Positions 1 through 37,300 of a DNA stretch of 64,000 nucleotides are shown in pieces. How positions within the stretch are numbered: the stretch's first letter is position 1; the number at the start of each line of letters is the position of its first letter. The position numbers were made by a program, and so were the translations under genes. Under the pieces are notes generated by a model. It worked only from the letters and a program-made list of their open reading frames with translations, did not search any database and was not told the DNA's origin. The stretch lies in the IMG/VR virus record IMGVR_UViG_3300049893_003686; one strand, written 5' to 3'. This stretch comes from a virus.

Positions 1-160
1 GGGCTTCTAGGGCTTATAGGGCTTCTAGGGTTTCTTGGGCTTCTGAGGCTTCTGTGGCTTCTTGGGTTTCTGGGGCTTATAGGGCTTCTTGGGTTTCTGT
101 GGTTTCTGGGTTTTCGGTGGTTTATAGAGGTTATGTGGTCTCTATAGTAAGAGGCGGTAG

Positions 161-412
161 ATGATTTCTTATGCTGTAGTTTATTTTTATTCTGGGGCTT
201 CTAGGGCTTCTGGGGCTTCTGGGTCTTATAGGGCTTCTGGGTCTTATAGGGCTTCTTGTGTTTCTAGGGCTTCTTGGATTTCTAGGGTTTCTGGGGTTTC
301 TGTGGCTTCTGTGGTTTCTGGGGCTTCTTGGGCTTCTTGGGCTTCTGGCGCTTCTAGGGCTTCTAGGGTTTCTGGGGTTTCTTGGGTTTCTGGAGTAAGG
401 GGTGGTAGATGA
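161..412 (+). CDS. Array-A unit ORF. Low-complexity Gly/Ala/Ser-rich small protein ([12 protein letters not shown] + (G/R/W)(A/V)S repeats ... RGGR).
   Basis: SD-like AAGAGG sits 6-7 nt upstream of a conserved ATG in the linker. The stop TGA overlaps the next ATG (ATGA). Coding is uncertain because the 9-mer has no stop codon in any frame. Confidence 0.3.
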
Positions 413-678
413 TTTCTTATGCTGTAGTTTATTTGTATGGCGGGGCTTCTTGGGCCTCTAGGGCTTCTGGGGCTTCTAGGGCTTCTGGCGCTTCTGGGGC
501 TTCTGGGGCTTCTGGGGCTTCTGGGGCTTCTAGGGTTTCTAGGGTTTCTGGGACTTCTAGGGCTTCTTGGGCTTCTTGGGTTTCTAGGGCTTCTGGGGCT
601 TATAGGGTTTCTTGGGCTTCTGGGGCTTCTTGGGCTTCTGGAGGTTGTGCAACCTCTATAGTAAGGGGTAGTAGATGA
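409..678 (+). CDS. Array-A unit ORF (GAS-repeat small protein paralog).
   Basis: Same linker, SD and ATG as the 161-412 unit. ATGA overlaps at both ends. Confidence 0.3.
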
Positions 679-971
679 TTTCTTATGCTGTAGTTTATTT
701 TTATTCTGGGGCTTCTGGGGCTTCTTTGGTTTCTGGGGCTTCTAGGGCTTCTTGGATTTCTGGGGCTTCTAGGGCTTCTAGGGCTTCTAGGGCTTCTAGG
801 GCTTCTAGGATTTCTGAGGCTTCTGTGGCTTCTTGGGTTTCTGGGGCTTCTGGGGTTTCTGGGGCCTCTGGGGCCTCTGGGACTTCTAGGGTTTCTGGGG
901 CTTCTAGGGCTTCTTGGGTGTCTAGGGTTTCTTGGATTTCTAGGGCTTCTAGAGTAAGAGGCGGTAGATGA
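675..971 (+). CDS. Array-A unit ORF (GAS-repeat small protein paralog).
   Basis: Same architecture as 161-412. A fifth truncated start at 968 follows. Confidence 0.3.
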
Positions 972-1602
972 TTTCTTATGCTGTAGTTTATTTTTATGGT
1001 GAGGTTTCTGACGCTAACTCATATAGTAGGATATAAGGATCTATCTTTGACGCAGTAGCATCTACATCGGGATTACATCTTGATATAGCTGTTCGTGAGC
1101 ATAATTTTAATTTTCGCAAAGATCAATAGTTGCTAATAATATAGTTTATGATAAATAGCCTAAGTCTAATCCTTAATGTCTATCTATATAGAGATTTGCA
1201 ACAAACCTTATATCAAGGTCCGCAGTCAGTGGGTTATCGGTGTTTATGATTCTTCCCACTACATCATATAGACCTTATTACCAATATAGCTTAATTTAAA
1301 GCCCCGGATTGTAACTGGGAGATGCGAGCTTATATGCTCGCTATTGGTATTTGTAATTTACATATAATCGTATGCCAGTCGCACATACATCTGCTTATAG
1401 CACTTCGATATAATTATAGTTTATTCTGCTTAGAGGGCCATGTGATTACTTCATCACAGGCAGTCTAAAGCGATTTAAACCTTCTTGAAGAAAGCAATTA
1501 TATACACTAGAAAAATACCTAACCTAGATTAAGGAAGGGTAATTCCGTCAGAGGCAATTTTCTACTGCTATCGTATATGATTTTTATATCTCTACACTAG
1601 AA

Positions 1603-1715
1603 GGTTAATATCTTAGCGTCCAAGATATTAAATACTTTTGCGAAAAAACCGATCTATAAGATCACTGAGATCGCGGGGGAAAATATTCTTAGACAAATGC
1701 ATAGGGCGATCCGAG
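1603..1715. repeat. Direct repeat copy 1 (~113 bp) inside the ORF-free region. It contains the palindrome TTAATATCTT-agcgtcc-AAGATATTAA.
   Basis: Near-identical to 2173-2284. The few mismatches are atcactgag versus ataaccgag and one fewer G in copy 2. Confidence 0.85.
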
Positions 1716-2172
1716 TCTATACTTACTATTATTTCCTCAAGTAAATATATCCTAAGTACCCTATATAATTCTACGAGTTTATTCGACTAATGAGATTCTT
1801 CTTTTCGCGGCCAATAAATGGCACAGCCAGCTACTAGAAGCGCCTCATATTCGGTATAAACGCATTTTATAATAATAATTCTGAGCAACCCGCATAGGCC
1901 ATCTGGGCACCCATTTGGGTCTACTGTAATCATGTATATTTATAAGATTTTATCAAAGCCACTAGTGTGTGAAAAATATATTTGGGTTAATAAATTACTA
2001 ATCTACAATATCCTGCGGCAATTTTATAGTAGGCATCGCAGGTTGCAACATTTTCTATCTTGAAGATGGCGATAAGAATCCATTATATAGCGAGCGTTCT
2101 CACCAAGTGGAAATGTGTCACATCACATTAAGACAATCGTATATAGAGACATCCAGCAATAAATACCGCATA

Positions 2173-2284
2173 GGTTAATATCTTAGCGTCCAAGATATTA
2201 AATACTTTTGCGAAAAAACCGATCTATAAGATAACCGAGATCGCGGGGAAAATATTCTTAGACAAATGCATAGGGCGATCCGAG
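2173..2284. repeat. Direct repeat copy 2 (~112 bp), same element as 1603-1715.
   Basis: Direct sequence identity. Includes the 10-bp-arm palindrome at 2176-2202. Confidence 0.85.
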
Positions 2285-2615
2285 GATTGGATCTAACACT
2301 ACTAGATCTATTCTAATACAATAGATAGTAACTTTAATTCTCTATATGTTAACCATACTCTAAACTTAAGAGTAATTCTAATCTACCAATATCATGCCTT
2401 TGCTATAAGATCTCCGATATCTATCAAAGCTATAAGTGCGTAATAATTTTTATTAGGTTAATACATTATTAACATTAATATAAATAACTGCCTAAATTCT
2501 ACACCCTAAGTCGCATTTCTTCAGATAATTAACTACACATTAACTGTGTGGGCAGCATACAGATGAGTTTGGTAACAGCTAACCCTAAAAACCTATACGA
2601 CATCATAATATAGCT

Positions 2616-2846
2616 ATGGAGAGCGACGAGATGATTTCTTATACGGCAATTTATTGGTATGGTGAAGATTCTAATACTTATGGGGTTTCTAGGGTTTCTG
2701 GGGATTATAGGGCTTCTTGGGCTTCTGGGACTTCTTGGGATTCTGCGGCTTCTAGTGTTTCTAGGGCTTCTAAGGTTTATAGGGCTTCTTGGGTTTCTGG
2801 GGTTTTTTGGGGTTATGTAATCTCCAGAGCAAGGAGTGGTCAATGA
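2616..2846 (+). CDS. Array-B unit ORF (Gly/Ser/Ala/Val-rich low-complexity small protein).
   Basis: Conserved linker ATG (2631, or upstream ATG at 2616). TGA overlaps the next ATG at 2843-2846. Confidence 0.3.
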   Translation: MESDEMISYTAIYWYGEDSNTYGVSRVSGDYRASWASGTSWDSAASSVSRASKVYRASWVSGVFWGYVISRARSGQ

Positions 2847-3031
2847 TCTCTCATGCGACAGTTTATCTTTATGGTGGAGCTTATTGGACTTCTAAGGCTT
2901 CTAAGGCTTCTGGGATTTCTAAGGCCTCTTGGATTTCTAAGGCTTCTGGGGTTTCTAGGGTTTCTATGGCTTCTAGGGCTTCTGGGGGTTATGGGAGCTA
3001 TATAGTCTCCAGAGCAAGAGGTGGTAGATGA
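2843..3031 (+). CDS. Array-B unit ORF ([12 protein letters not shown] + (K/R)AS repeats).
   Basis: ATGA overlaps at both ends. SD-like AAGGAGTGG upstream. Confidence 0.3.
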
Positions 3032-3279
3032 TTTCTCATGTGGGAGTTTATTTTTATTCTGTGGCTTCTTTGGTTTCTGGGGCTTCTTTGGTTTCTAGGG
3101 CCTCTAGGGCTTCTAGGGCTTCTAGGGCTTCTGTGGCTTCTGGGGCTTCTGGGGCTTTTAGGATTTCTGGGGTTTCTGGGGCTTCTTTGGTTTCTATGAC
3201 TTCTGGGGTTTCTGGGGCTTCTGGGGTTTCTGGGGCTTCTGGGGTTTCTGGGGTTTCTGGGGCAAGAGGTGGCAGATGA
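3028..3279 (+). CDS. Array-B unit ORF ([11 protein letters not shown] + GAS/GVS repeats).
   Basis: ATGA overlaps at both ends. Confidence 0.3.
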
Positions 3280-3551
3280 TTTCTCATGTGGGAGTTTATT
3301 TTTATTCTGGGGCTTCTTGGGTTTCTTGGGTTTCTGGGGTTTCTGTGACTTCTTGGGTTTCTAGGGTTTCTGGGGTTTCTGGGGTTTCTGTGACTTCTGG
3401 GGTTTCTGGGGTTTCTGGGGCTTCTGGGGTTTCTAGGGCTTCTAAGGCCTCTATGGTTTCTGGGGCAAGAGGTGGTAGATTATTTCTCATGTGGGAGTTT
3501 ATTGGTACGGCGAGGTTACTGGAGCGGACCTATTCGTATAGGAATAGATAA
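3276..3551 (+). CDS. Array-B terminal unit ORF, which reads out into unique sequence.
   Basis: Begins with an ATGA overlap. The next linker is mutated (ATTA), so the ORF continues into unique sequence. Confidence 0.25.
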
Positions 3552-3589
3552 TTTAAGTATAAAGCAATATACTTCACATAGAGAGTGAC

Positions 3590-4078
3590 ATGAATATCTT
3601 CCTAGTAGATACTGATCCAATTAAAGCAGCACAAGCGTTATGCGACAAACATTGTATCAAAATGATTCTAGAAACAGCACAATTGCTATCAACATCAGTA
3701 TACCTCACAAAAGGAGATTTAACAGGGCTGTATAAGCCAACCCATTTAGCACATCCATGTACTAAGTGGGCCTCAGAGTCTAAGATTAATTTTAATTGGC
3801 TAAAGAACCATGGATTAGGCCTTCTGTCGGAATATACGTTTCGATATCGAAAAGAGCATAAGTCAACACAGATAATATTAAAATGCACTAATGAATCTCT
3901 ACCAGACTTACCTGCTACAGATTTTGTTCAGGTAATGCCAGAGGTATATAGACGACCAGATCCTACAGAAGCATATAGGGCTTATTATAATAGTGCAAAG
4001 TATATGATGGCCACGTGGACAAGGCGGCAGCCTCCAGAATGGTGGTGCTCACAATTGTACGTAGAAAAGCACGAATAA
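3590..4078 (+). CDS. Hypothetical protein (conserved-looking N-terminus MNIFLVDTDPIKAAQALCDKHCIKMILETAQLL).
   Basis: 162-aa ORF, the first ordinary gene after the repeat region. No motif could be assigned confidently. Confidence 0.55.
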   Translation: MNIFLVDTDPIKAAQALCDKHCIKMILETAQLLSTSVYLTKGDLTGLYKPTHLAHPCTKWASESKINFNWLKNHGLGLLSEYTFRYRKEHKSTQIILKCTNESLPDLPATDFVQVMPEVYRRPDPTEAYRAYYNSAKYMMATWTRRQPPEWWCSQLYVEKHE

Positions 4079-4114
4079 AGATAATCTATTATAAAATAAT
4101 ATTGAGGAGAATAG

Positions 4115-4477
4115 ATGCAGCCATCAGATATGATAATTAATCAAAAAGACTGCAGAGGGCTATTCGAGCAGCTGATCACATCGCAACCCTATGCTTTGAT
4201 AGATAAAATAAAGCTAGGTGAATTATCCAATGCGCGTATGGGAGAAGCGCTGGAGATAATAGGTCAGCTTAATTACGAATTGATACATGATATCTATGCC
4301 AATTTAGTAAATCATCATAACTCATTGGTACGTGGTGGCATAGTTTGCGGACTAGCCCTACATTCAGAAAATGTACAAGCTAGGCAATTACTTAAACAGA
4401 TGGCTGACTCAGATCCATCAGAGACAATACGATACGCTGCCGGACAAATATATTTCGAACATAGGTCAGTAAAATGA
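4115..4477 (+). CDS. Hypothetical protein, HEAT/PBS-lyase-like helical repeat.
   Basis: 120-aa ORF. The segment VRGGIVCGLALHSENVQARQLLKQMADSDPSETIRYAAG resembles a HEAT-like repeat. RBS GAGGAG upstream. Confidence 0.45.
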   Translation: MQPSDMIINQKDCRGLFEQLITSQPYALIDKIKLGELSNARMGEALEIIGQLNYELIHDIYANLVNHHNSLVRGGIVCGLALHSENVQARQLLKQMADSDPSETIRYAAGQIYFEHRSVK

Positions 4478-4965
4478 TGCAGCATGTAGTTATCCATGAA
4501 GGGTCACTCCTTGATTCTAAGGATCAGTACTTGGCCCACCAGACAAACTGCATTTCAAAAAGAGCAGCACACCTAGCAGATGAGGTATTTGCTAAATATC
4601 CATATGCGAACGTTTATTCCAAACGCACATCTCAGGATGAACCAGGAACAATCATCATTAGCGGTAACGGCAACGATGAAAGATACGTCATCAATATGAT
4701 GGGGCAGGTCTATCCAGGCAAACCTAAGTATAGCGAGAGTGCCACTGATGGGTACAGAGCCCGATATAGATATTTTTTTCTATGCCTAAAAGCTATATCT
4801 AAAATAGATAATTTGCAAAGTATTGCATTTCCATGGCAGATAGGCTGTGGCGCAGCAGGTGGCAACTGGGAAGATTACTATAATTTACTAAATAAATTCG
4901 CGAAACATTTATCAGGTAAAGTAGAAGTAAAGATATATAGACTCCCAGATGATGATCATATATAA
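4474..4965 (+). CDS. Macro-domain-like protein (Poa1/ADP-ribose-processing family candidate).
   Basis: ATGATG overlaps the previous stop. The pattern LAHQTNCISKRAAHLADEVFAKYPYAN resembles the macro (Poa1p-like) core. Sits beside NAD salvage genes. Confidence 0.4.
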   Translation: MMQHVVIHEGSLLDSKDQYLAHQTNCISKRAAHLADEVFAKYPYANVYSKRTSQDEPGTIIISGNGNDERYVINMMGQVYPGKPKYSESATDGYRARYRYFFLCLKAISKIDNLQSIAFPWQIGCGAAGGNWEDYYNLLNKFAKHLSGKVEVKIYRLPDDDHI

Positions 4966-4988
4966 TTTGTTATAACAAAGGTAAATTC

Positions 4989-5387
4989 ATGAAACAAATG
5001 GCAAGTCCTGGATGGAAGAACAAATCAGGTTACTATATCATAGAAAGAGAGGAATGGCGAGCAGAAATATATCCAAGCTCCAATAATTATGCCTGGCGTC
5101 TAGATCGTGCAGGATATACCCGATTCTCGGGAGAAGATAATAATTTAGAAGAGATTAAAAGAAATTTAGAATTAATACTAGGATATAGATTTCTTGTTAA
5201 AGAAGAGATTGTTATTGATAAATATTGCACATGTGGCGGATGCGCAAGATTTACTGGTCGATGGCAAGTACTTGACTGTATGGGCGAGGAAGAGCCGATC
5301 TTTCAGAGTGAGGATGATGCATTAGCTTGGATAGCCAATCAAGACATGAAGCACGAAATAGCTAATCTGGCACACAAAATGCAATAA
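4989..5387 (+). CDS. Hypothetical protein.
   Basis: 132-aa ORF in consistent orientation. Contains the Cys motif CTCGGCARFTGRWQVLDC. Confidence 0.5.
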   Translation: MKQMASPGWKNKSGYYIIEREEWRAEIYPSSNNYAWRLDRAGYTRFSGEDNNLEEIKRNLELILGYRFLVKEEIVIDKYCTCGGCARFTGRWQVLDCMGEEEPIFQSEDDALAWIANQDMKHEIANLAHKMQ

Positions 5388-5457
5388 TCTGTACATGTGA
5401 TACTCATATTAGCTTAACTTAATATTTGCATATCAGGATATATGTGGAGAACATAAC

Positions 5458-5697
5458 ATGTTATTTACGATAGGAAATAGAGAATTTGAATTTGCTAGAC
5501 AAACTTCTGAAATAGGCAAGCTCTTCTGTGGTATGTATAATACCGAGACTGATGCGTATATAGGGGTACATTTCTTTGTATCAAAACCGACTCATAAGTA
5601 TTGGGGATTTCAGCAAGATGAGTTGGGCGGAACTTTAATGAAGCAATTTGGATTAGGTCCAATAGCATTATTTGTGTGGGTGGCATATGGCGAATAA
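5458..5697 (+). CDS. Hypothetical small protein.
   Basis: 79-aa ORF. RBS GGAGAA upstream. Confidence 0.4.
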   Translation: MLFTIGNREFEFARQTSEIGKLFCGMYNTETDAYIGVHFFVSKPTHKYWGFQQDELGGTLMKQFGLGPIALFVWVAYGE

Positions 5698-6133
5698 AAA
5701 TAGCTTGAGAGTAGCACATAAAGGGTTGGCCTATCATGAAATGACTTCAGATGTTTATGATGGTCCAAGATCTATAAGTGACCGAAAATGGTGGAAGCGA
5801 TATGCCGCGAAGCGCAAAAGACGCACTGAAGATAATGAAATTGTAGAACAGATTGGCAAGTAAGACCTGTACCACAAGTCTCTTAATACTAAGAGACGTA
5901 TGATAGAGAAATTAGGATGGATATAAATAAACGAAATTTAGAGGATGCTGGCGATCACATAGAAGCACACTTTTTGCTCAGAGCGTGGTTATCACGAACT
6001 ATGGTAAGTATTATATATGCTTAGGCTATACTGACAGTTAATTATAGTAATTATTATTGCCTTTACTTACCTCGTATAACGCATCATCAGAGATAATACG
6101 CGGTAACTGAAATCTTATTACTAGAGATTTTAT

Positions 6134-7243
6134 ATGCATGATGAAATCAATGTTGGAGTTGTAATCGGAAGATTCCAACCTCTACACATCTGTCACCTCT
6201 CAGAGGCGATCTTGCCCGCCCTAGATGAATCAGACACATTAATCATTCTTCTCGGATCATCGCACAGACCAAGTACACCTAAAAATCCATGGACGGACTC
6301 TGATAGGGCGGAGATGATTCATCTTGGCCTAAAAGACGCAGGGATGACCGTAGAGGCATATGGAAATTGGTTATTAAAGATAGGTGCGAGTGACACTACT
6401 CAAAAGACGGTATATATTGTTCCAATAAGAGACTTTGCTTATTCAGATATTCAGTGGCAGATGCAAGTGCAGGAGAAAGTAAGAGAGATCGTTTCATCCT
6501 GCTCAAATCTCGATAGCAAATATGAATCTGCAAAAATTAATCTATTTGGAGTAGATCGTGATGATACCACATTCTACCTTAAATTATTTCCTCAATGGAT
6601 AGATAAAACAACTAAGCGGGATAAGAGCTCCGATCAAGTTAAGGGCACAATGTGCAGAGAGCTGATTTTTGCTAGCGGCGCAAAAGGTCATGGGGAGTGG
6701 GGAAAGTACTTGTCACCCCAGGTATCAGAATTCATATTAAATTGGTGTAACTCAATATCATTTTCATCACTTAAAGAAGAGTTTGATTTTCTCAAACGAT
6801 ATAAGGCAGACTTATCTGGATATAAATATCCAATTATATTTCAAACAGTAGATAATATTATTCTATATAAGGGGCACGTCTTCTTGCTAAATAGGAGGAG
6901 TTTCCCTGGAAAAGGATTGCTATCTTTACCGGGCGGGTTTATAGATTCCAGTCTAACTCTACTTCAGAGCGCGCTATCTATAGCCAAAGAGAAAAGTAAA
7001 CTTAATCTTAAATTAGACTGGCTTGTAGCAAGCAAGACTTTCGATTATCCCGGACGCTCACTAAGAGGCAGGACTATCACTACAGCATTTCTCTGGAAAT
7101 TACCCGAGACAATGAATGTAATAGTTGCAGGGGCAAATAAAGAACACTGGTATCAGCTATGCGATATCATGAAAATGAGTGATTTCTTATATGAAGATCA
7201 CTATGATATCATAATTGATATGCTACAGCTTAGCAAGACATAA
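6134..7243 (+). CDS. nadM: Bifunctional NMN adenylyltransferase (NadM-type) with a C-terminal Nudix-like domain (NatV-like).
   Basis: N-terminal GRFQPLHICH motif of the (H/T)xGH nucleotidyltransferase class (archaeal-type NMNAT). C-terminal LPGGFIDSS...EK segment is a degenerate Nudix box. Adjacent to NadV. Confidence 0.65.
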   Translation: MHDEINVGVVIGRFQPLHICHLSEAILPALDESDTLIILLGSSHRPSTPKNPWTDSDRAEMIHLGLKDAGMTVEAYGNWLLKIGASDTTQKTVYIVPIRDFAYSDIQWQMQVQEKVREIVSSCSNLDSKYESAKINLFGVDRDDTTFYLKLFPQWIDKTTKRDKSSDQVKGTMCRELIFASGAKGHGEWGKYLSPQVSEFILNWCNSISFSSLKEEFDFLKRYKADLSGYKYPIIFQTVDNIILYKGHVFLLNRRSFPGKGLLSLPGGFIDSSLTLLQSALSIAKEKSKLNLKLDWLVASKTFDYPGRSLRGRTITTAFLWKLPETMNVIVAGANKEHWYQLCDIMKMSDFLYEDHYDIIIDMLQLSKT

Positions 7244-7287
7244 GTCGATATACGACGCATATAACTTATTTTCGGAGGAATATACCA

Positions 7288-8768
7288 TGGAATTTTCAAA
7301 ATTTCTACATACTGACAGTTATAAATTAGCTCACTTCGAGCAATATCCAGCAGCCAAGAAGATGGTTGCTTATGGTGAATTTCGCAAGCCGTATCCTAAT
7401 ATTAAAGATGAGCGAATTGTTGTATACGGCATACAGTATTTAGTAGATAAATTTTTAAACAAACAGTGGACGGTAGAAGAACTTAATGCCGCATCACAAT
7501 TTGCCAGCAAACATAATGCTGGTTTAAAAGAATACCCATTTCCTCGGAAATTATTTACCGACATGATTGCTGAAAATAACGGATACTTTCCAGTTAAGGT
7601 AGAGGCTGTTCCGGACGGAACAGTGGTATACCCACATGTGCCAGTGTATCAGATTACAGCAGAGGGGAAGTATTCGGGTCTGGTAACATACATCGAAAGT
7701 TTTCTGTCGCACTTATGGTATTCAACTACTGTAGCAACTCTTTCACGACATACTAAAACACTTATCAAAAATGCGTTCGATCTTACTGTAGATGATAATA
7801 TGAGGTGGTTACTTGGGAGTCGATTGCATGATTTTGGTTATCGAGGCTGTGCGTCTGATGAGCAGGCTATGATCGGAGGTGCCGCACACCTACTTAATTT
7901 TGATGGTACAGATACGATGCTAGCTGCTGCATATGCACACTATCAAAATAATGGAGAAGAATTTGCACAAAGTATTCCAGCTACAGAGCATTCGGTAATG
8001 ACATCATGGCCATCAGAAGTTGATGCAGTTCGAAATATGATCCACCACTACGGAGATGGTGTATTTGCCTGTGTAGCTGATAGCTATGACTATAAGCACT
8101 TTCTTCATCATGTATTGCCAGCAGTAGCAGCTGATGTGCAGGCTAAGGGCGGCACAATGGTAATTAGACCAGACTCTGGCGATCCACTTAAATCAGTGAT
8201 AGACGGACTCTATGCTTGTCAAAGATATTTTGGAATATCCTATAATAAAAAGGGATTTAAGGTACTGAACAATAGCGCAATAATTCAAGGTGACGGCATT
8301 AATATAGAGATAGTTGATAACATACTTACTGAGGTTATTAATAATGGATTCAGCGCACAGAACGTAGCCTTCGGCATGGGCGCCGGCCTATTACATAAAC
8401 ATAATAGAGATACTATGAGTTTTGCCACTAAGTTATCATATATTGAATATGCAGATGGGACAAGTAGGAACATTATGAAGGCACCTAAAACGGATCCGGA
8501 GAAGTACTCACTACCTGGTATACTTAAGGTAATTAATGATGACCTATTGAAGGTTGGAACAGAAGAAGATCGTGGTAATAACTTGCTGATAACAGTGTAT
8601 GATGGCAGACCAGTAGATTTTAAAGAGAAATTTTCTAACATCCGCGCTAAGGTAGAACATCAATGGAATCTCTTACCGCCTAAAGTAGAAAACCTATTTA
8701 CAGATAAGTTAAAGATGAAGATAAATGAGACAATCTTTAACTTAAGAAATAGCACGTCCAAATCCTAA
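7288..8768 (+). CDS. nadV: Nicotinamide phosphoribosyltransferase (NAMPT/NadV).
   Basis: TDSYKLAHFEQYP and DFGYRGCASDEQAMIGGAAHLLNFDGTDT closely match the NAMPT signature (DSYK..., FGYRGVSS...HLVNFKGTDT). RBS GGAGGA lies 8 nt upstream of ATG 7288. The longer ORF from 7215 overlaps the upstream gene. Confidence 0.9.
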
Positions 8769-17278: not shown

Positions 17279-18409
17279 ATGAAATTCCCTATTATCGAGC
17301 ACACAATTTTACTTACAATAGCAGGCTCTAGGAGTTACGGTATGCACAAAAGTGACTCCGATATAGACCTAAAAGGGATAGCCATCCCTCCTATAGATTC
17401 CTATATTGGAGTTTTACCAAATTTCGAACAAGTAGAGTCATCAGAAGCAATGATGGTATATTATCCTCTACTATCGAATGATGAGAAAGATATTTCAGAT
17501 AAATATAAGCTTGAAGGGGTTATATATGATTTGCGTAAATTCATACGACTGGCATCTGGTTCAAATCCCAATATCTTAGATGTATTATTTTGCGATGATG
17601 AGCACGTCAGGTTCTCATCAAAGGCAGGAGATATCATAAGGGCTAGCAGAGATCTATTCATATCTGCACAGGCTAAGCATACATATTCTGGTTATGCAAC
17701 GGCGCAATTTAAGCGCATTAAGACTCATAGGGGATATCTGCTAAATGCTCCAAAGACAGAGCCAGACAGGAGTGAGTTCGGTCTATCAAAGGACCACTGC
17801 ATTCCACGTGCCCAGGTAGAGGCATCTTTATCAGAGATTAATAAGAAACTTGATGAGTGGGAATTAGATCTTAGCTCTATAGATTCTGAGTCTGACAGAA
17901 TGTCGATATTAAATAATATTGCACAAGTACTATCAGAAATAATGTCAACAACTGACTCTAAATGGAAGAGCTCCGCTAGAAACATCGGCTATGGCGATAA
18001 CCTTATTGAAATTCTAGACAAGGAGCGTAGATTTAGACAGGCTAAGAACGAATGGGATAAATATCAATATTGGAAGAAGGGGCGAAACTCAGCACGAGCG
18101 AAACTAGAAGAAAAATACGGGTATGATACCAAGCACGCTTCTCACTTAGTTAGATTAATGAGGATGTGTTATGAGATTTTAGTAGATGGCAAGGTCAATG
18201 TCAATCGCAAGAAAATAGATGCCGATGAATTAGTTGCGATTCGAGATGGCTCATGGAGCTACGATAAGCTAGAGGAATTCTTTATAACGATGGATAATAA
18301 ATGCAGCGAGCTGTATAATAGTAAGTCATATAGCATTCCACATAGGGTAGATATGAGTGCGATAAATGCATTGTGCGTACAACTCATCTCCGATAAGTAC
18401 AAAATGTGA
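17279..18409 (+). CDS. Pol-beta-superfamily nucleotidyltransferase domain protein.
   Basis: GSRSYGMHKSDSDIDLKG matches the GS...D.D minimal nucleotidyltransferase motif. The C-terminal region is unassigned. Confidence 0.5.
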   Translation: MKFPIIEHTILLTIAGSRSYGMHKSDSDIDLKGIAIPPIDSYIGVLPNFEQVESSEAMMVYYPLLSNDEKDISDKYKLEGVIYDLRKFIRLASGSNPNILDVLFCDDEHVRFSSKAGDIIRASRDLFISAQAKHTYSGYATAQFKRIKTHRGYLLNAPKTEPDRSEFGLSKDHCIPRAQVEASLSEINKKLDEWELDLSSIDSESDRMSILNNIAQVLSEIMSTTDSKWKSSARNIGYGDNLIEILDKERRFRQAKNEWDKYQYWKKGRNSARAKLEEKYGYDTKHASHLVRLMRMCYEILVDGKVNVNRKKIDADELVAIRDGSWSYDKLEEFFITMDNKCSELYNSKSYSIPHRVDMSAINALCVQLISDKYKM

Positions 18410-25708: not shown

Positions 25709-25792
25709 GGGCCAGTAGACGCGCTCCGCTCATAACGGAGTAAGGGTAATTTGGTTCTGAAAATGTGGGTTCAAGTCCCACCTGGCCCACCA
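25709..25792 (+). tRNA. Aberrant tRNA-like gene, copy 1. It has a CAU anticodon stem-loop, a canonical T-arm and acceptor, and encoded CCA. The D-arm region is only 8 nt and there is a 24-nt extra region.
   Basis: Acceptor GGGCCAG/CTGGCCC followed by A and CCA. T-arm GTGGG-TTCAAGT-CCCAC. Stem CTCCG/CGGAG with loop CTCATAA. A byte-identical copy lies at 42249-42332. Confidence 0.45.
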
Positions 25793-25936
25793 TTTACACG
25801 TACTCAATTCCTAATCTGACGTACGGTAATAGAATGATTAGGATCTCACTCTTCGGGATTTAAGAGCAACCCTTTAGCCTTAGGCGTTGTAGTACGGAGA
25901 GAAAAGGCCATCTTCTTTTAAGGAGAGCGTCAGCTA

Positions 25937-26560
25937 ATGCTTAGAGCTGAAGGTAAGCTGCCTAGAGATGTATACGTAGCTTGTTCTGGCGGCGTAGACA
26001 GTATGGCAGTGCTTGCGTTTTTAATGCGCCGAGAAGTTAAGCCACAAGTAGTCTACTTTAATCATAGGACTGATCATTCAGAAAAAGCAGAAGAACATGT
26101 ACGTACATTCTGCACTAAGCACGCCCTCAATCTTACCATAGGAACTATTCTTCGTGATCGCCTTAGCCGTGAGTCTAAAGAGGAATTTTGGCGAAACGAG
26201 AGATATAAATTCCTGCACGGACTATCTCTACCAGTAATTACAGCGCATAACTTAGACGATTGTATTGAAACATGGATCTTCTCTTCATTGCATGGAGAAG
26301 GAAAAATGATTCCATACAGAAATCGAAATGTAATTAGACCATTTAGACAAACACATAAGGCAGAGTTTATCAGATGGTGCACGAAGAATAACATCCCATG
26401 GATAGAGGACGAGTCAAATAAGAATATATTATTTGCACGCAATAGAATCAGACATGCACTTATGCCAGAAGTTCTAAAAATCAATCCTGGAATTTCTAAA
26501 GTAATTAGAAAGAAAATCTTGGCAGAAAGTGATATGCATAGGCTTTCCCCGCCACTCTAA
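25937..26560 (+). CDS. tRNA(Ile)-lysidine synthetase-like PP-loop ATPase (TilS N-terminal domain only, 207 aa).
   Basis: PP-loop SGGVDSMAV and TilS-type AHNLDDCIETWI (HxxDDxxET) motif. No C-terminal QueC-like Cys cluster. Confidence 0.7.
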   Translation: MLRAEGKLPRDVYVACSGGVDSMAVLAFLMRREVKPQVVYFNHRTDHSEKAEEHVRTFCTKHALNLTIGTILRDRLSRESKEEFWRNERYKFLHGLSLPVITAHNLDDCIETWIFSSLHGEGKMIPYRNRNVIRPFRQTHKAEFIRWCTKNNIPWIEDESNKNILFARNRIRHALMPEVLKINPGISKVIRKKILAESDMHRLSPPL

Positions 26561-28430: not shown

Positions 28431-28510
28431 GAGAATTAATCTAGATATAAGGTCACATTAACTATAACTATAGCGTCATGCTGGCGTATATAGGAATAAT
28501 CGGAGAAAAG

Positions 28511-30802
28511 ATGAAGAAATATATTTTCGCAACGCTACTGCTCGCAACTACAGCGGCAGCATCAAATAGCGATAAATCTCATCATGAAAAGGTGGAGATT
28601 TGTCATAAGGATCATCATGAAATTAGTGTCGACGAGCATGCTGTCGAGGCGCATATTGATCACGGCGATTGTCTCGGGACATGTCCATGCGCCCCATTGC
28701 CAGAATGCCAATCTGATGCTGATTGTACTAACGATCTATTCTGTGATGGCAACGAATCATGCCTCAATGGAAGCTGTGTGGCAGGAGAGTCTCCGTGTGA
28801 GCACAGCTTATCATGTGACGAAGTGGAAGACCTATGTGTGCAACAGCCAGATTGCATTACCGATAGCGATTGTGACGACGGAGTATTTTGTAATAATCAA
28901 GAATTATGTTTAAATGGCTCCTGTGTTTCTTTTGGAGATAGTCCATGCCCAGACTACATTTGTGTAGAAAAGTATGCCATATGCGTATTGCCACCAGAGT
29001 GTCATGTAGATGACGATTGTACGAATGGACTATTTTGCGACGGGCACGAATTATGTTCAAATGGAGCATGCGTATCCAATGTACTTCCATGCCCTGAAAC
29101 AGAACAGTGTGACGAAGAATCTGATGCTTGTTTTAATGCAGGTGAGGGTGAAGGAGAAGGCGAGGGAGAAGGTGAGGGTGAAGGAGAAGGCGAGGGAGAA
29201 GGTGAGGGTGAAGGAGAAGGCGAGGGAGAAGGTGAGGGTGAAGGAGAAGGCGAGGGAGAAGGTGAAGGCGAGGGTGAAGGTGCCGAGAAAACAAACTTAT
29301 TTGTCTCAGGGTCAGGGATTTTTTCATGCTCTGAGTCATCATCTCCAGACCTGTTTATACTTGCACTATTCTTGCCAGCACTGCTAATATCACAAAAGCG
29401 TAGGGCACTAGTAGCAACCTTAGTAATTGGACTATTTTCATTCTCTGCTTCTGCAGAAGGATTAAATCGTGTAGGTGGCCCAACATCATTTAACGATTCC
29501 CCGCAAGCATCATCAGCGGATCTACTGCCTAACCTTACATTGCAGACTGGTCTAAACTTAGATTACTCGCATGCTCCATTGGTGCTCAGAGACGTAGCTT
29601 TTATTAAGCATAGTGATTTGGTCGAACACCAATTCTCAAGTAGCATCAATGCAGCAATGGGATTTCGCGATGTCGTGCAATTAGATCTAGCATTGCCCAT
29701 TTCAGTCGCAACAGGACAGGGTTTAAATTTGGATGGAACACCATCAGCTGGTCTTCAGGATATGACAGCTGGTGTTAGATTGCGGTTGACTGACAGCAAA
29801 GCACCATTACGCACTGCCCTTAGCCTTAAAGGTACGATGCCAACATCGCTATTGTCATTTAATGGAATGCCAACATTTGGAGAGGTATTCCCGACGCTTA
29901 CCCCAGGAGTCTTACTTACTGCCGGCAATGAGTTGGCATCAGTTACACTAAATACAGGATACACTATTCGTATTCCTAAAAATGTAGCGGATCTTCAAAT
30001 GGGACATACTGTAAATGCAGCTGTAGGTGGACAACTGTGCTTACTTAAAGATAGCTTGTGGTTAGTCGGAGATGTTGGCACAAGTCTATCAGCACAAGGC
30101 TTGTTTACAAATCGATTATTTATGCCAGTAGAGGCGACACTTGGCTTTAAAGGAAAGCACGGTCCTTTCTATGGAATGGTAGCCGCTGGCTCTGGGCTAT
30201 TGCCCGACGTTGGGACCCCTGATGTGCGCGTTTTGGCTTCATTAGGTCTTAATTTTGACTTTGCAACTAAGCAGAAAGCACGTACCACTAGCAAGTTAGT
30301 TACAGAGCATAATCCTCTGCCACCTCCACTTGATTCCGATGGCGATGGGATCCTTGATCAAGATGATAAGTGTCCAAATGATCCAGAGGATTTTGATGGA
30401 TTTGAGGATTCAGATGGGTGCCCAGAGCAAGAGTTAGTAGTAATAGAGTCAGAAAAAATCATATTGTTATCCCCAGTGTACTTTTTCTTTGACTCAGATC
30501 AAATTAAACCAGAAAGCTTTCAAGTATTGAATGATGTGGCAACTGTACTAAAAGAGCATACTGAGATTAAGCTATTGTCTATTGAGGGGCATGCCTCAGC
30601 AGAAGGTGAATTGGATTATAACCAAGCACTTAGTGAACGCCGAGCTTTGGCAATAGTAAAATTCCTCCAAAAGGCAGGAGTTGCTACAGAACGACTTGTT
30701 GCACTCGGGCATGGAGAGAATAATCCGGCTGAATCAAATAAGACAAAAGCTGGACGTGAAAAAAATCGCCGCGTAGAGTTTCGTATTCTAGAAAAGCAGT
30801 GA
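28511..30802 (+). CDS. Large secreted OmpA-family cell-envelope protein. It has N-terminal Cys-rich modules, a Glu-Gly repeat, thrombospondin-type-3-like Ca-binding repeats and a C-terminal OmpA peptidoglycan-binding domain.
   Basis: Signal peptide MKKYIFATLLLATTAAAS with RBS GGAGAA. Four DCTNDLFCDGxExCxNGSCV modules. (EG)n tract. DSDGDGILDQDDKCPNDPEDFDGFEDSDGCPE. OmpA box NQALSERRALAIVKFL...RRVEF. Confidence 0.8.
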   Translation: MKKYIFATLLLATTAAASNSDKSHHEKVEICHKDHHEISVDEHAVEAHIDHGDCLGTCPCAPLPECQSDADCTNDLFCDGNESCLNGSCVAGESPCEHSLSCDEVEDLCVQQPDCITDSDCDDGVFCNNQELCLNGSCVSFGDSPCPDYICVEKYAICVLPPECHVDDDCTNGLFCDGHELCSNGACVSNVLPCPETEQCDEESDACFNAGEGEGEGEGEGEGEGEGEGEGEGEGEGEGEGEGEGEGEGEGEGEGEGAEKTNLFVSGSGIFSCSESSSPDLFILALFLPALLISQKRRALVATLVIGLFSFSASAEGLNRVGGPTSFNDSPQASSADLLPNLTLQTGLNLDYSHAPLVLRDVAFIKHSDLVEHQFSSSINAAMGFRDVVQLDLALPISVATGQGLNLDGTPSAGLQDMTAGVRLRLTDSKAPLRTALSLKGTMPTSLLSFNGMPTFGEVFPTLTPGVLLTAGNELASVTLNTGYTIRIPKNVADLQMGHTVNAAVGGQLCLLKDSLWLVGDVGTSLSAQGLFTNRLFMPVEATLGFKGKHGPFYGMVAAGSGLLPDVGTPDVRVLASLGLNFDFATKQKARTTSKLVTEHNPLPPPLDSDGDGILDQDDKCPNDPEDFDGFEDSDGCPEQELVVIESEKIILLSPVYFFFDSDQIKPESFQVLNDVATVLKEHTEIKLLSIEGHASAEGELDYNQALSERRALAIVKFLQKAGVATERLVALGHGENNPAESNKTKAGREKNRRVEFRILEKQ
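29141..29282 (+). repeat. In-frame simple repeat (GAGGGTGAAGGAGAAGGCGAGGGAGAAGGT)n encoding an (EG)~24 tract within the OmpA-family gene.
   Basis: Directly visible. Four or more copies of a 30-nt unit. Confidence 0.85.
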
Positions 30803-30857: not shown

Positions 30858-31628
30858 ATGAGCAGTAATGAACTTGGTTTGAAGATTAAAAGTTTATATG
30901 AAAATCGTACACGACTCTTGCTAGATCAAGATGAGTATATAATTATCAGAATTGATGGTAAGAATTTTTCAAGATATACTCGTAAGCTCAAAAAGCCATT
31001 CGATCAGGATCTTGCAGATGATTTCGACCAAACTGCTAAGATATTGTGCTCTCAAATCATGGGAGCACATATGGCATATACTCAAAGTGATGAGATAAGT
31101 ATTGTAGTTTCGAATTTTAGTTCTTCAGGTAAGGACATCTGGTTTAACGGAAATATACAAAAAATAGTTTCAGTATCATGTTCAATGGCAACAGCATCAT
31201 TTAATGATTCAAGAATAAAGCGAAGTGTTGATTATAAAGGTGGAATTTTTGATTCTAGGGTATTTACAATACCTGATCGCTCATCAGTATTAGAGTATTT
31301 AACCTGGAGACAAAAGGATGCAAGTAGAAATTCCATTTCCATGATTGCAAGAAGCGTAATGAGTAGTAAAGAAATGCATGGAATTTCTACTGGCAAAATA
31401 ATAGAGATTTTAAAAGATAGAGGAATAGACCTCAAAATATATAATCAAGGTCTATTGTATGGAAGAATTATTTTCAAAGAAAAATTTACAGTAACCGCTA
31501 CTCATAGTGAATACGGGATTGCTCAAAATTCTGATTCACTCAGAACAAGATGGGTAGCTAAGACAGCACCAAATTTCTCTAAAGAAGACATTTCCATAGA
31601 ATTGATTCCAGAAAGAAAGCTTTCTTGA
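30858..31628 (+). CDS. Hypothetical protein.
   Basis: 256-aa ORF. Confidence 0.55.
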   Translation: MSSNELGLKIKSLYENRTRLLLDQDEYIIIRIDGKNFSRYTRKLKKPFDQDLADDFDQTAKILCSQIMGAHMAYTQSDEISIVVSNFSSSGKDIWFNGNIQKIVSVSCSMATASFNDSRIKRSVDYKGGIFDSRVFTIPDRSSVLEYLTWRQKDASRNSISMIARSVMSSKEMHGISTGKIIEILKDRGIDLKIYNQGLLYGRIIFKEKFTVTATHSEYGIAQNSDSLRTRWVAKTAPNFSKEDISIELIPERKLS

Positions 31629-36039: not shown

Positions 36040-36435
36040 ATGCTGTTCAAGTACTTAACTTTGGATCCAATGGATAATTTGCTTGGGTCATTTGGGCGTA
36101 CATATAACTCAACCCACAATAAGCTACCAGCGAATATTTCATCTCAACAAGATAAATACGAAATAAGCATCCTTATTCCAGGATTTACCAAAGACGAGAT
36201 TAAGTTAACTGTAAGTGGTAATACTATGCTAATTTTAGCTGAAAAATCAACCATTTCTGATGTGGAATATTTCCATAAAGAATTTGCAATTGAAACAGTA
36301 GAGCGTAAAATATCATTACCTTCTTCAGTTAAGAAGGATGCCATTTCAGCATCATATAATGAAGGAATTCTGACCATTACACTCCCACACTCTAACTTAA
36401 GAAATGAGTCTTCCATTGAAATTCAAGTTTGCTAA
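36040..36435 (+). CDS. Small heat-shock protein (Hsp20/alpha-crystallin family).
   Basis: Alpha-crystallin domain YEISILIPGFTKDEIKLTVSGNTMLILAEK ... FAIETVERKISLPSSVKKDAISASYNEGILTITLP. RBS GGAGGT lies before ATG 36040. Confidence 0.75.
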   Translation: MLFKYLTLDPMDNLLGSFGRTYNSTHNKLPANISSQQDKYEISILIPGFTKDEIKLTVSGNTMLILAEKSTISDVEYFHKEFAIETVERKISLPSSVKKDAISASYNEGILTITLPHSNLRNESSIEIQVC

Positions 36436-37300
36436 CAATCACCATAATGGTATAGATTACTGTATCATCTATCATGCTAACTGTGCCGACGGCTTTGCGG
36501 CTGCTTGGGCCATATGGAAAGTGCTAGGGGACCAGCTGGCCAGCTATCATCCGGCAGCATACGGCTCAGAGCCACCTGAAGAAATAAAGGATAGGCACGT
36601 AGTTATAGTAGATTTTTCATACTCTCGTAAGGTTCTTGAAGAAATCAAGAGCAAGGCAAAAAGCCTGTTAGTTCTCGATCATCATAAAAGTGCTGAAGAG
36701 AGTTTGCGTGATTTCGAGGGAGCTCATTTTGATATGAATCGCAGCGGGGCCGGTATGGCATGGGATTATTTCCATGAAAAGCCCCGTCCGCCACTCATTA
36801 ATTATGTAGAGGATCGAGACTTATGGAACTGGAAGCTGCCATATGCTAAAGAACTAACCGCTATGTTTGAAATTGATAATCAATCATTTCAAGATCTCTC
36901 TGAATTTAATAGCAAGTTAGAGTCACCTGAAGAATTTCAAGTCTTGGTAACTAAGGGGTCTGCTGTCCTAGAATATAAGAATTCTAGAGTTAAAATGCTG
37001 TCCTCCAAACCTTATATGGTAGACATATCCAGTATATGTATGTTAGATGACCTGACATTGCAGATTCCATGTGTCAATTCTCAACTTTTTCAAAGTGAAA
37101 TTGGTAATGTTTTGGCTCAAAAGCATCCAATGGCAATAGTTTGGTATCGCGCAGAAGACGGATCATATAGACACTCATTGCGTTCGAATGGCAAAATTGA
37201 TTGTAGCAAGATTGCTCAATTTTGGGGAGGCGGGGGTCATGCAAATGCAGCAGGATTTACAACGCAAGAACCCTTAGTTAGAATGGATGATAAAAGCTAA
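36404..37300 (+). CDS. DHH-DHHA1 family phosphoesterase (NrnA/RecJ-like).
   Basis: Motifs ANCADGFAAAWAIW, VVIVDFS and LVLDHHKS (DHH). GGGGHANAAG (DHHA1). Confidence 0.75.
   Translation: MSLPLKFKFANNHHNGIDYCIIYHANCADGFAAAWAIWKVLGDQLASYHPAAYGSEPPEEIKDRHVVIVDFSYSRKVLEEIKSKAKSLLVLDHHKSAEESLRDFEGAHFDMNRSGAGMAWDYFHEKPRPPLINYVEDRDLWNWKLPYAKELTAMFEIDNQSFQDLSEFNSKLESPEEFQVLVTKGSAVLEYKNSRVKMLSSKPYMVDISSICMLDDLTLQIPCVNSQLFQSEIGNVLAQKHPMAIVWYRAEDGSYRHSLRSNGKIDCSKIAQFWGGGGHANAAGFTTQEPLVRMDDKS

Follow-up and report, generated by a model that had tools for sequence, protein, structure and literature searches.

Two arrays of a 9-bp repeat in an IMG/VR virus genome are probably clusters of small, translationally coupled repeat-peptide genes

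The window analysed here is a 64,000-nucleotide stretch of the IMG/VR virus record IMGVR_UViG_3300049893_003686, and it opens with two higher-order arrays of a 9-bp repeat on the + strand, array A (1-1036) and array B (2616-3551). These arrays are best read, with a probability of about 0.7, as two clusters of small back-to-back phage genes on that strand that contain a coding 9-bp minisatellite and belong to a protein family not previously described. Each gene would begin with a conserved N-terminus (M-I-S-[H/Y]-A-V-V-Y-[F/W]-Y-[G/S]-G), continue with an in-frame minisatellite, NGG-G[C/T]T-TCT, read 15-27 times as [Gly/Arg/Trp]-[Ala/Val]-Ser (frame +a below), and close with a basic C-terminus, (G-x-[V/I]-T-S-R)-[V/A]-R-G-G-R. 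Stop and start codons of successive genes overlap as ATGA, so that the genes are probably translated by coupling. The numbers of repeats and of genes would change by slippage and unequal recombination, which would account for the variable unit lengths, the decayed last units and the duplication into arrays A and B. We infer from the DNA that the mini-genes are translated. An earlier note, made from the letters alone, had listed translationally coupled small open reading frames (ORFs), or a hypervariable low-complexity protein family, among several readings; this one is the best supported, by gene-boundary features kept in a relative, by frame +a, by eight homologous proteins and by analogous families in other contigs.

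Both arrays are built of units of 185-293 bp, each consisting of 15-27 nine-mers of the form NGGG[C/T]TTCT and one conserved linker. Tandem Repeats Finder (TRF) reports a 9-bp periodicity at 1-123, 190-950, 2677-2816, 2889-2987 and 3057-3466, and a 27-nt pattern describing the linker occurs nine times in the window, always on the + strand, against no occurrence in 100 shuffles. The two arrays noted earlier are thus real. Their proposed plan of repeat plus linker also stands, but the figures given for it, some 25 nine-mers in a unit of about 250 bp, are replaced by the ranges above. Successive linkers are 248, 266 and 293 bp apart in array A; in array B the distances are 212, 185, 248 and 203 bp. 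All of these spacings equal 5 modulo 9, and hence 2 modulo 3, which implies a whole number of nine-mers plus a linker of fixed size. Each array closes with a truncated unit, at 968-1036 (ATG kept) and at 3479-3551 (ATG changed to ATT), and the likeness of these two units (YGEVSDAN and YGEVTGAD) indicates that arrays A and B are duplicates of a whole cassette. Array A continues past the start of the window, 1-1036 being its visible part. Its presence at position 1 may reflect an assembly or window edge, since short-read assemblies break in such repeats. The sequence of the right edge of array B is confirmed by an independent short-read assembly (Logan SRR35532387, locus L103), which is identical to the window from 3405 on and ends inside array B.

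The composition of the repeat was taken from 193 nine-mers, of which 157 lie in the window and the rest in a relative (L104) described below. There are 58 distinct nine-mers in this set; the exact form GGGGCTTCT makes up just 26 of the 193, and the six forms [A/G/T]GGG[C/T]TTCT together make up 107 (55%). Position 1 is the most variable, with A, G and T at about 34, 48 and 17% and C never found, and the first base of the NGG codon is G in 46-53% of nine-mers. Position 5 is C or T, position 7 is T in all 193 nine-mers, and positions 6 and 9 are T and almost invariant. By this per-position composition TTCT is better conserved than the GGG tract, and the variation runs almost wholly from G/C to A/T.

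The linker is probably best read as a gene boundary, in an arrangement that is classic for translational coupling. It contains a C-terminus, (V/A)RGGR, a Shine-Dalgarno (SD)-like sequence, AAGAGGTGG, the ATGA overlap of stop and start, and an N-terminus, MIS[H/Y]AVVY[F/W]Y. The last codons of one gene, AGA GGT GGT AGA, are also the SD site of the next: AAGAGG or AAGGGG plus (T/C)GG stops 3 nt short of the ATG, and every complete internal unit, in the window as in L104, has an SD of the AAGAGG/AAGGGG type 3-7 nt 5' of its ATG. It had been suggested that every linker carries SD, ATG and ATGA. SD and ATG are indeed present in the complete units, but the ATGA overlap occurs at seven of the nine linkers in the window, the exceptions being the linker at 2631, which opens array B without a preceding unit, and that at 3479, which has decayed to ATTA. 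An SD-like tetramer precedes the start codon in 21 of 43 long ORFs in the window, and with such a tetramer at about half of its long ORFs the phage appears to use SD-led initiation.

Units A0, A2, B0 and B1 have an extended C-terminal motif (G-x-[V/I]-T-S-R before RGGR). The extended motif (G-G-C-A-T-S and similar) is also a palindrome in DNA and RNA, as at 640-656 in A2 (GGAGGTTGTGCAACCTC, just 5' of the next SD) and further at 126-146, 2803-2822 and 2993-3012. It may form a hairpin a few bases 5' of the SD of the next gene, or it is perhaps mere complementarity of Gly/Arg codons (GGN/AGA) with Thr/Ser codons (ACC/TCT).

A homologous array is present in IMGVR_UViG_3300049893_002454 (125.5 kb; loci L056 and L104), where it is the sole thing that the 20-kb L104 region has in common with the window. 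It comprises three full units and a decayed fourth in which ATG has become ATA, and the units keep AAGAGGTGG, the ATGA overlap, an N-terminus MMSHAVVYWYGG and a C-terminus RARGGR. Conservation of SD, ATG and ATGA in the linkers of relatives had been named in the earlier note as a check on coding, and it is found in this otherwise unrelated contig. In the second L104 unit, two adjacent nine-mers carry indels of +1 and +2 (10 and 11 nt; L104 10266-10292) and have runs of five and six G. The net change is +3, so that the unit length is 8 modulo 9 yet 2 modulo 3: the 9-bp register has been lost and the frame has been kept. This suggests that the G runs are prone to slippage and that second hits restoring the frame are retained. 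In the window and L104 together, all ten complete units keep the ATG, the SD-like sequence and the open frame, and nine of them keep the stop codon; of the three truncated terminal units, two have lost their start codon.

The relative carries a single array, without a non-coding spacer, at about 21.5-22.2 kb of its contig. An RmlD-like gene from a dTDP-sugar cluster precedes this array by 210 bp, and a FAD oxidoreductase gene follows it at 75 bp; next come IscA-like, GroEL and NifS-like genes, all on the same strand.

Profile searches covered 5.8 billion proteins, with an exhaustive search of 1.84 billion representatives, and returned eight more predicted proteins, all of them from other metagenomes: P0001-3, from one 47.6-kb JGI contig, P0012, from an 18.1-kb contig, and P0019, P0022, P0026 and P0031. 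These homologues are 35-68 aa long, start with MI[S/C][H/S] and end with TSRVRGGR or a close variant, and their consensus is MIS[H]AVVY[F/W]YGG-(x-S-x)n-G[H/Y/C][V/I]TSRVRGGR. Among 50,697 phage genomes, megablast of window positions 1-8000 gave no nucleotide match and tblastn of two family members gave none. The exact linker DNA pattern has no match in IMG/VR, and a relaxed pattern retrieves only L056 and chance matches. A metagenome scan with the linker pattern gave 34 loci, all chance single matches without arrays, and a scan of genome contigs found no relative. With patterns for the nine-mer array, IMG/VR yields mostly genes without relation to the family, in which the motif is read in other frames (such as KKP or EAP linkers of long ORFs, or short RAS/WAS variable-number tandem repeats), and no further batteries of mini-genes. 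Relatives of the neighbouring Pyr_excise-like gene, at 34 loci and with at most 47% identity, include none with arrays.

Of the six reading frames, only frame +a is both stop-free and equipped with a start in every complete unit. Its ORFs have the sequence that the earlier note gave for them, with RGGR at the end. It reads [G/R/W]-[A/V]-S, with no stop in the repeat bodies and with ATG and SD in every complete unit; shuffling of the nine-mer columns predicts 2.8 frame +a stops against the zero observed (P = 0.036, modest support). Frame +b reads G-L-L and has seven stops, with ATG in seven of 13 units and TGA and TAG closing every linker. Frames +c (G-F-x, 63 stops) and -KPQ (K-P-Q, 57 stops) yield no candidate. 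On the minus strand, R-S-P has no stops, being open because T9 never changes, and has no start codon in array A; E-A-P has 16 stops and an ATG in array B and L104 only, none in array A. The lack of minus-strand starts in array A arises because the linker His codon CAT is TAT there. The claim that the nine-mer has no stop in any of six frames is accordingly true for the consensus, but the real arrays have stops in four frames.

Coding in a different frame, as a hydrophobic (Gly-Leu-Leu)n in +b or as (Pro-Glu-Ala)n or (Arg-Ser-Pro)n on the minus strand, has a certain appeal in that the most variable base of the repeat is silent in +b (CTN) and in R-S-P (CCN). Synonymous differences number 129 and 125 in these two frames, against 31 in frame +a, and minus-strand ORFs with a start do exist in array B and L104. 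Frame +b was nevertheless rejected for its seven stops and its missing starts, and minus-strand coding for the absence of start codons in array A. In addition, nearly every neighbouring long ORF, and every annotated one, is on the + strand (46 of 49 ORFs of at least 150 aa; the three minus-strand ORFs are unannotated, and two of them overlap + strand ORFs). We regard coding in another frame as very improbable indeed.

Two analogous x-Ala-Ser families, in phage-like contigs, bear on the question of coding. The contig Ga0307378_10098337 (JGI 3300031566, 1-3056; L106, of which L107 is a near-duplicate) consists almost entirely of at least eight tandem small ORFs on the + strand, of the form MNILLTSNW-(x-A-S)n-ELIVRTK, with the nine-mer NGG-GCC-TCC. 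In four of these, the start codon is part of an ATGA overlap shared with the ORF before. Three paralogues (954-1169, 2284-2499 and 2657-2881) have the same termini around non-repetitive middles, and the paralogue termini vary silently (AAC/AAT, CTA/TTA/CTC, AGT/AGC, ACT/ACC/ACA and GTG/GTA). In Ga0255825_1000582 (JGI 3300023202, 57.6 kb; L105), two adjacent (x-Ala-Ser)n ORFs of 78 and 85 aa at 5140-5670 have the nine-mer NGG-GCT-TCC and the N-termini MIAVRIAS and MRAVKIAC. They directly follow a DUF2201_N gene in a phage-like + strand operon, and the FtsK-like gene of this contig is 35% identical to that of the window. A profile search with the L106 family found only itself, its candidate list being saturated by low-complexity proteins.

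The Ala-Ser dipeptide does not change between the window, L105 and L106, but its wobble bases do. Ala is GCT in 68 of 76 and Ser TCT in 132 of 136 repeat codons of the window; the L105 repeats use GCT (21 of 26) and TCC (26 of 34), and those of L106 use GCC (73 of 76) and TCC (76 of 90). Such differences are silent only in frame +a. A constant Ala-Ser with differing wobble bases points to selection on the frame +a peptide, whether the families are homologous or convergent. In frame +b the T-to-C changes of L105 and L106 turn Leu into Pro, which is a further point against that frame. The arrays of the window, L104, L105 and L106 are co-oriented with their flanking genes and tightly packed. Their neighbourhoods share nothing between the four loci, and genomic context thus offers no functional clue.

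Several observations weigh against the reading of the arrays as protein-coding genes. Relative to the nine-mer consensus, frame +a differences are synonymous in 31 cases and non-synonymous in 270; the wobble positions (3, 6 and 9) belong to those that vary least, and position 1, which decides between Gly, Arg and Trp, varies most. The arrays retain GGG and AGG although the genome favours GGA and AGA, which means that some constraint besides frame +a coding, or else strong concerted evolution, must be at work. In the 13 linkers, the ratio of non-synonymous to synonymous differences (pN/pS, Nei-Gojobori) is about 1.06 for the N-terminal part, and for the C-terminal part it is about the same in frame +a (0.58) and in an antisense frame (0.62), so that it does not tell the frames apart. 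The eight homologues are gene predictions, among which broken copies would escape notice (an ascertainment bias), and the family has no match below E = 0.01 in Pfam, PHROGs, PDB or the defence families. The pattern of variation in repeats and linkers reads as concerted evolution of a few favoured variants (R/G/W x A/V), and an extra constraint on the repeats at the nucleic-acid level may also be present. It is chiefly for this pattern that the coding reading is given no higher probability.

A linker pN/pS near 1 would also be expected if the arrays were a decaying or selfish satellite, derived from one ancestral small gene, whose relic copies are homogenised by unequal crossing-over and whose products are not under selection. 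The 58 nine-mer variants, nearly all of them changes from G/C to A/T, are as mutation pressure in a 38% GC genome predicts, and each array has a decayed terminal unit, with the stop lost at 3479. However, the ten complete units, from two genomes, preserve starts, SD-like sequences and open frames despite about 45% non-canonical nine-mers, start loss is confined to truncated terminal units, and the family persists in several unrelated contigs. A satellite of this kind is therefore judged quite improbable.

It may instead be that the arrays act as nucleic acid, in the form of a G-quadruplex (G4), a structured RNA or a multi-site protein platform, and that the ORF features of the linkers are incidental or serve only for ribosome loading. 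The G4 potential raised earlier is borne out in silico: the 64-kb window has 19 canonical motifs (at least four tracts of three or more G, with loops of at most 7 nt), every one of them in the arrays and on the + strand. Conservation of the GGG at positions 2-4 and of TTCT, with position 1 free, would suit such an element, as would the wobble G kept at position 3 against the codon preference of the genome, the RNA fold of one unit (-104 kcal/mol, z = -3.0) and the linker pN/pS of about 1. The + strand was, however, described as carrying GGGG every 9 nt, and although GGG is present in 106 of the 157 window nine-mers (68%), GGGG is present in just 47. The features conserved across genomes are gene boundaries, namely SD, ATG, ATGA and frame, and the frame is restored after indels in L104. 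The TTCT bases, which would form the G4 loops, are more conserved than the G tract, something that a G4 does not need. One L106 gene (7-261, with WAS/TAS repeats) has no G4 motif, and the non-repetitive L106 paralogues still share their termini. GGG follows automatically from NGG codons succeeded by GCN or GTN, and the G tract is probably a by-product of this codon order. A purely nucleic-acid role for the arrays is thus considered unlikely.

The 1.6-kb spacer between the arrays (1004-2615) bears on a further alternative, that of a replication origin, a genome terminus or a packaging site, in which the repeats would be iterons or terminal repeats around a non-coding control region. The spacer had been described as an ORF-free region with direct repeats, and it contains no ORF longer than 50 aa and a 114-bp direct repeat in two copies that are 97% identical; it also holds a tRNA-like gene. 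The 114-bp repeat contains a hairpin with a 10-bp stem (TTAATATCTT-AGCGTCC-AAGATATTAA) and has no other copy within the window, and its fold as RNA is no more stable than that of shuffled sequence (z = -0.84). The tRNA-like gene has the anticodon loop AUUGUAA (UGU, Thr-like), a D loop without GG and the T loop UUAUAU. It was not called by ARAGORN, and it is probably not part of the arrays.

Two arrays flanking a stretch without long ORFs, a direct repeat with hairpins and with three or four GATC sites per copy in a phage that encodes a Dam-type methylase, and the contact of array A with the window start are all consistent with an origin or terminus. However, the array of the relative is single, has no spacer and lies about 22 kb inside a 125-kb contig amid co-oriented genes. 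With that, the case made from position for an origin, terminus or packaging role falls away, and the spacer is placed outside the conserved cassette. Cumulative GC skew does not turn anywhere in the window. GATC shows no overall enrichment (229 sites against 223 expected), and its clustering in the spacer, tried as an origin signal, proved to be a weak local excess only, with a 500-bp maximum of 6 against 5 elsewhere. No initiator or terminase gene adjoins the arrays in the window, the contig edge is meaningless where short-read assemblies break in such repeats, and the spacer holds the tRNA-like gene. Membership among iteron origins was rejected for want of a skew switch and an adjacent initiator and because the L104 array sits inside a gene block; membership among termini or packaging sites was rejected because that array is internal and no terminase lies near the window arrays. 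The origin, terminus or packaging role proposed in the earlier note is therefore dropped as very unlikely.

The features of the arrays and the spacer are collected in Table 1. In B3 the stop has been lost (TGA to TTA), and the gene consequently reads through the decayed terminal unit of array B; the next gene, Pyr_excise-like, starts at 3590.

Table 1. Features of the two arrays and of the spacer between them (window coordinates).
Feature	Position	Strand	Basis or remark
Unit A0, 3' part: repeats and C-terminal motif	1-160	+	Sequence, TRF, nine-mer parsing; runs off the window start
Stop codon of A0, TGA	162-164	+	Inside the ATGA overlap
Mini-gene A1, 83 aa, (xSx)22 followed by VRGGR	161-412	+	Sequence, linker pattern; SD-like AAGAGGCGG at 149-157; stop overlaps next ATG (ATGA 409-412)
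Mini-gene A2, 89 aa, extended family C-terminal motif	409-678	+	Sequence, homologous proteins
Mini-gene A3, 98 aa, 27 nine-mers, ends RVRGGR, ATGA overlap	675-971	+	Nine-mer parsing
Terminal truncated unit of array A, 22 codons	968-1036	+	Sequence
tRNA-like gene	1279-1349	+	Rfam RF00005, 37.4 bits (gathering score 29); cloverleaf minimum free energy fold, z = -3.9
114-bp direct repeat, copy 1	1602-1715	+	Four GATC sites
114-bp direct repeat, copy 2	2172-2284	+	97% identical to copy 1; three GATC sites
Mini-gene B0, first of array B	2616-2846	+	Sequence; 71 aa from ATG 2631 (MISYTAIYWYGE...SRARSGQ), with GGAGAG 7 nt 5' of it, or 76 aa from ATG 2616
Mini-gene B1, 62 aa, ATGA overlap at both ends	2843-3031	+	Linker pattern
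Mini-gene B2, 83 aa, ends GARGGR	3028-3279	+	Sequence
Mini-gene B3, 91 aa, with decayed terminal unit 3479-3551	3276-3551	+	Sequence, L103
Linker pattern starts	160, 408, 674, 967, 2630, 2842, 3027, 3275, 3478	+	Pattern search

The predicted products are 62-98 aa long, have pI values of 9.5-12 and consist of about 30% Ser. Asp and Glu number 0-1 in six of the seven products and four in B0, and up to 13 Arg/Lys and 0-5 Trp per product are spread over a background of Gly, Ala, Val and Ser. AlphaFold, run on a 10-sequence alignment, gives a predicted local distance difference test (pLDDT) score of 50, which is consistent with disorder and otherwise uninformative. The hydrophobic stretch at the N-terminus, of 12 residues, is too short for a signal peptide, and a lipobox is absent. 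The C-terminal Gly-Gly varies, since VRGDR, VRGSR, ARSGQ and RSVR also exist. It is tentatively proposed that the products are multivalent, polycationic sticker-and-spacer proteins that bind a polyanion, for instance nucleic acid or the cell envelope, and that the many gene copies serve to produce them in bulk.

A broader and more doubtful proposal is that the cassettes represent an unrecognised class of phage genes, batteries of repeat peptides that are born and resized by 9-nt amplification, much like the antifreeze genes of fishes, arose in at least three lineages, act in bulk as disordered products and are tuned in an arms race. The three lineages would be distinguished by their termini (MISH...RGGR, MNILLTSNW...LIVRTK and MIAVRIAS...). 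Their products, with Ser at every third position and studded with Arg and Trp, might be polycations that coat nucleic acid or form condensates; alternatively, they might be modifiable decoys, through O-glycosylation or an exposed C-terminal Gly-Gly. Gene number and repeat length would then serve as a quickly tunable parameter in the host arms race.

Further along the window, at 56209-58239 on the + strand, adjacent JAB-domain (Prok-JAB) and ThiF/E1-like genes form a module of the ubiquitin-like conjugation/deconjugation type. The E1-like ORF matches generic E1-E2 PADLOC models only, and the JAB ORF and the neighbouring ORFs match none. A link between this module and the RGG-R C-terminus of the mini-genes was rejected: the two are 50 kb apart, the Gly-Gly is not invariant, the JAB ORF has no PADLOC match and the match of the E1-like ORF is generic.

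The window appears to come from the genome of a large phage that is uncultivated. Its GC content is about 38%, and its genes include those for ClpB, NAMPT together with NMNAT/Nudix, DHODH, an ATP-dependent ligase, an FtsK-like ATPase, a helicase, Dam, Ro60 and a subtilase. In none of the 50,697 phage genomes does identity to the helicase exceed 27%. Directly after array B, at 4474-8768 on the + strand, are genes for a Macro-domain protein, a bifunctional cytidylyltransferase-like/Nudix protein and NAMPT (NAPRTase family), which together look like a set for NAD+ salvage. Phages use such sets against defences that deplete NAD.

A second coding repeat, at 29140-29280 within the + strand ORF 28478-30802, has a period of 30 bp (also 12 and 18 bp) and is 96% matched; the product is a 774-aa protein that has (Gly-Glu)n at this place and an OmpA domain at its C-terminus. 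Identical 87-nt tRNA-like genes of odd form are present at 25709-25795 and 42249-42335 on the + strand (Rfam, 42.1 bits), with a D arm of 3 nt, a long variable region, the anticodon loop CUCAUAA (CAU) and an encoded CCA. A Ro60/TROVE-vWA orthologue (37853-39460) is situated between them, with the first copy about 12 kb upstream of it and the second 2.8 kb downstream, and genes of RNA-repair type are found nearby (RlaP at 17279-18409, Thg1-like at 30858-31628, PP-loop at 25937-26560 and DHH at 36404-37300). The two tRNA-like genes could be Y-RNA-like or tRNA-like partners of Ro60, and neither matches a Y RNA in Rfam.

If the arrays are indeed clusters of repeat-peptide genes, they would provide a clear case, in a virus of prokaryotes, of genes made mostly of a coding minisatellite, and a tractable case of gene growth or birth by 9-nt amplification. 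Coupled batteries would be a compact route to a large and tunable amount of disordered polycation, and one unannotated family and two analogous ones would be added to the dark matter of large environmental phages. There are also practical warnings. Such loci break short-read assemblies and mimic origins or termini at contig edges, and gene callers leave them unannotated or place them on the wrong strand.

Comparison with known systems yields partial likenesses, the nearest being the antifreeze genes of fishes and the Borg repeats taken up last. Collagen-like Gly-X-Y repeats occur in phage fibre proteins, and Gly-Ala-Ser is a legal collagen triplet; here too, a triplet amino-acid period arises from a G-rich 9-bp repeat. 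However, Gly comes first in about half of the triplets, which is incompatible with a collagen helix, Arg (34%) and Trp (17%) take many of the other first positions, and it is Ser that is near-invariant. A collagen-like repeat was therefore rejected for lack of an uninterrupted Gly at every third residue. Iterons, which typically measure some 11-22 bp and number from a few to about ten copies, are non-coding and adjoin the gene for their binding protein. Iterons and centromere-like sites of the parC/tubC type resemble the arrays as clusters of short direct repeats, here in two blocks around a non-coding stretch, but in the window a 9-bp unit is present in over 150 copies that keep phase with ORFs, and the relative has one array and no spacer. 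Among bacterial families of size-variable repeat proteins, the Vlp-type tandem paralogues and contingency loci of Mycoplasma are surface lipoproteins with signal peptides and phase-variable promoters. They share with the mini-genes adjacent paralogues, conserved N-termini and in-frame repeats that change in number by slippage; the products of the window, with a short hydrophobic N-terminus and no lipobox, differ from them.

The antifreeze glycoprotein (AFGP) polyprotein genes of fishes arose from a 9-nt element for a tripeptide that was amplified into many blocks with short spacers (Zhuang et al. 2019, PMC6410882). As in the window, a hydroxyl residue occupies every third position (Thr-Ala-Ala there, x-Ala/Val-Ser here), the spacers are short and conserved, the genes form multigene families, and maintenance of the frame marks functional copies (PMC6410882). 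An AFGP is, however, a eukaryotic secreted polyprotein that is cut after translation and glycosylated at every Thr (PMC6410882), whereas each block here is an ORF of its own with SD and ATGA. No signal peptide is seen in the products of the window, and of the two systems only AFGP is known to be glycosylated and cleaved. The dTDP-sugar genes beside the L104 array may be no more than a coincidence.

The amino-acid tandem repeats (aaTRs) of Borg extrachromosomal elements, small 'de novo repeat peptides' among them (Schoelmerich et al. 2023, PMC9879509), are similar in that a large mobile or viral genome carries repeats with a unit length divisible by three, within ORFs that have start codons, and that these repeats encode disordered low-complexity regions (PMC9879509). 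Some Borg ORFs are likewise small and almost all repeat (PMC9879509), and the window has its second coding repeat, (Gly-Glu)n. Borg repeats, however, are perfect, recent, A-rich and unique to a locus (PMC9879509), whereas those of the window are imperfect, with 58 variants, and rich in G and T. Unlike Borg repeats, the window arrays are separate coupled genes with conserved termini, common to unrelated phage contigs. That coding tandem repeats create disordered proteins is thus already known; what is unusual here is a higher-order array of separately initiated, coupled mini-genes that recurs in several phage lineages.

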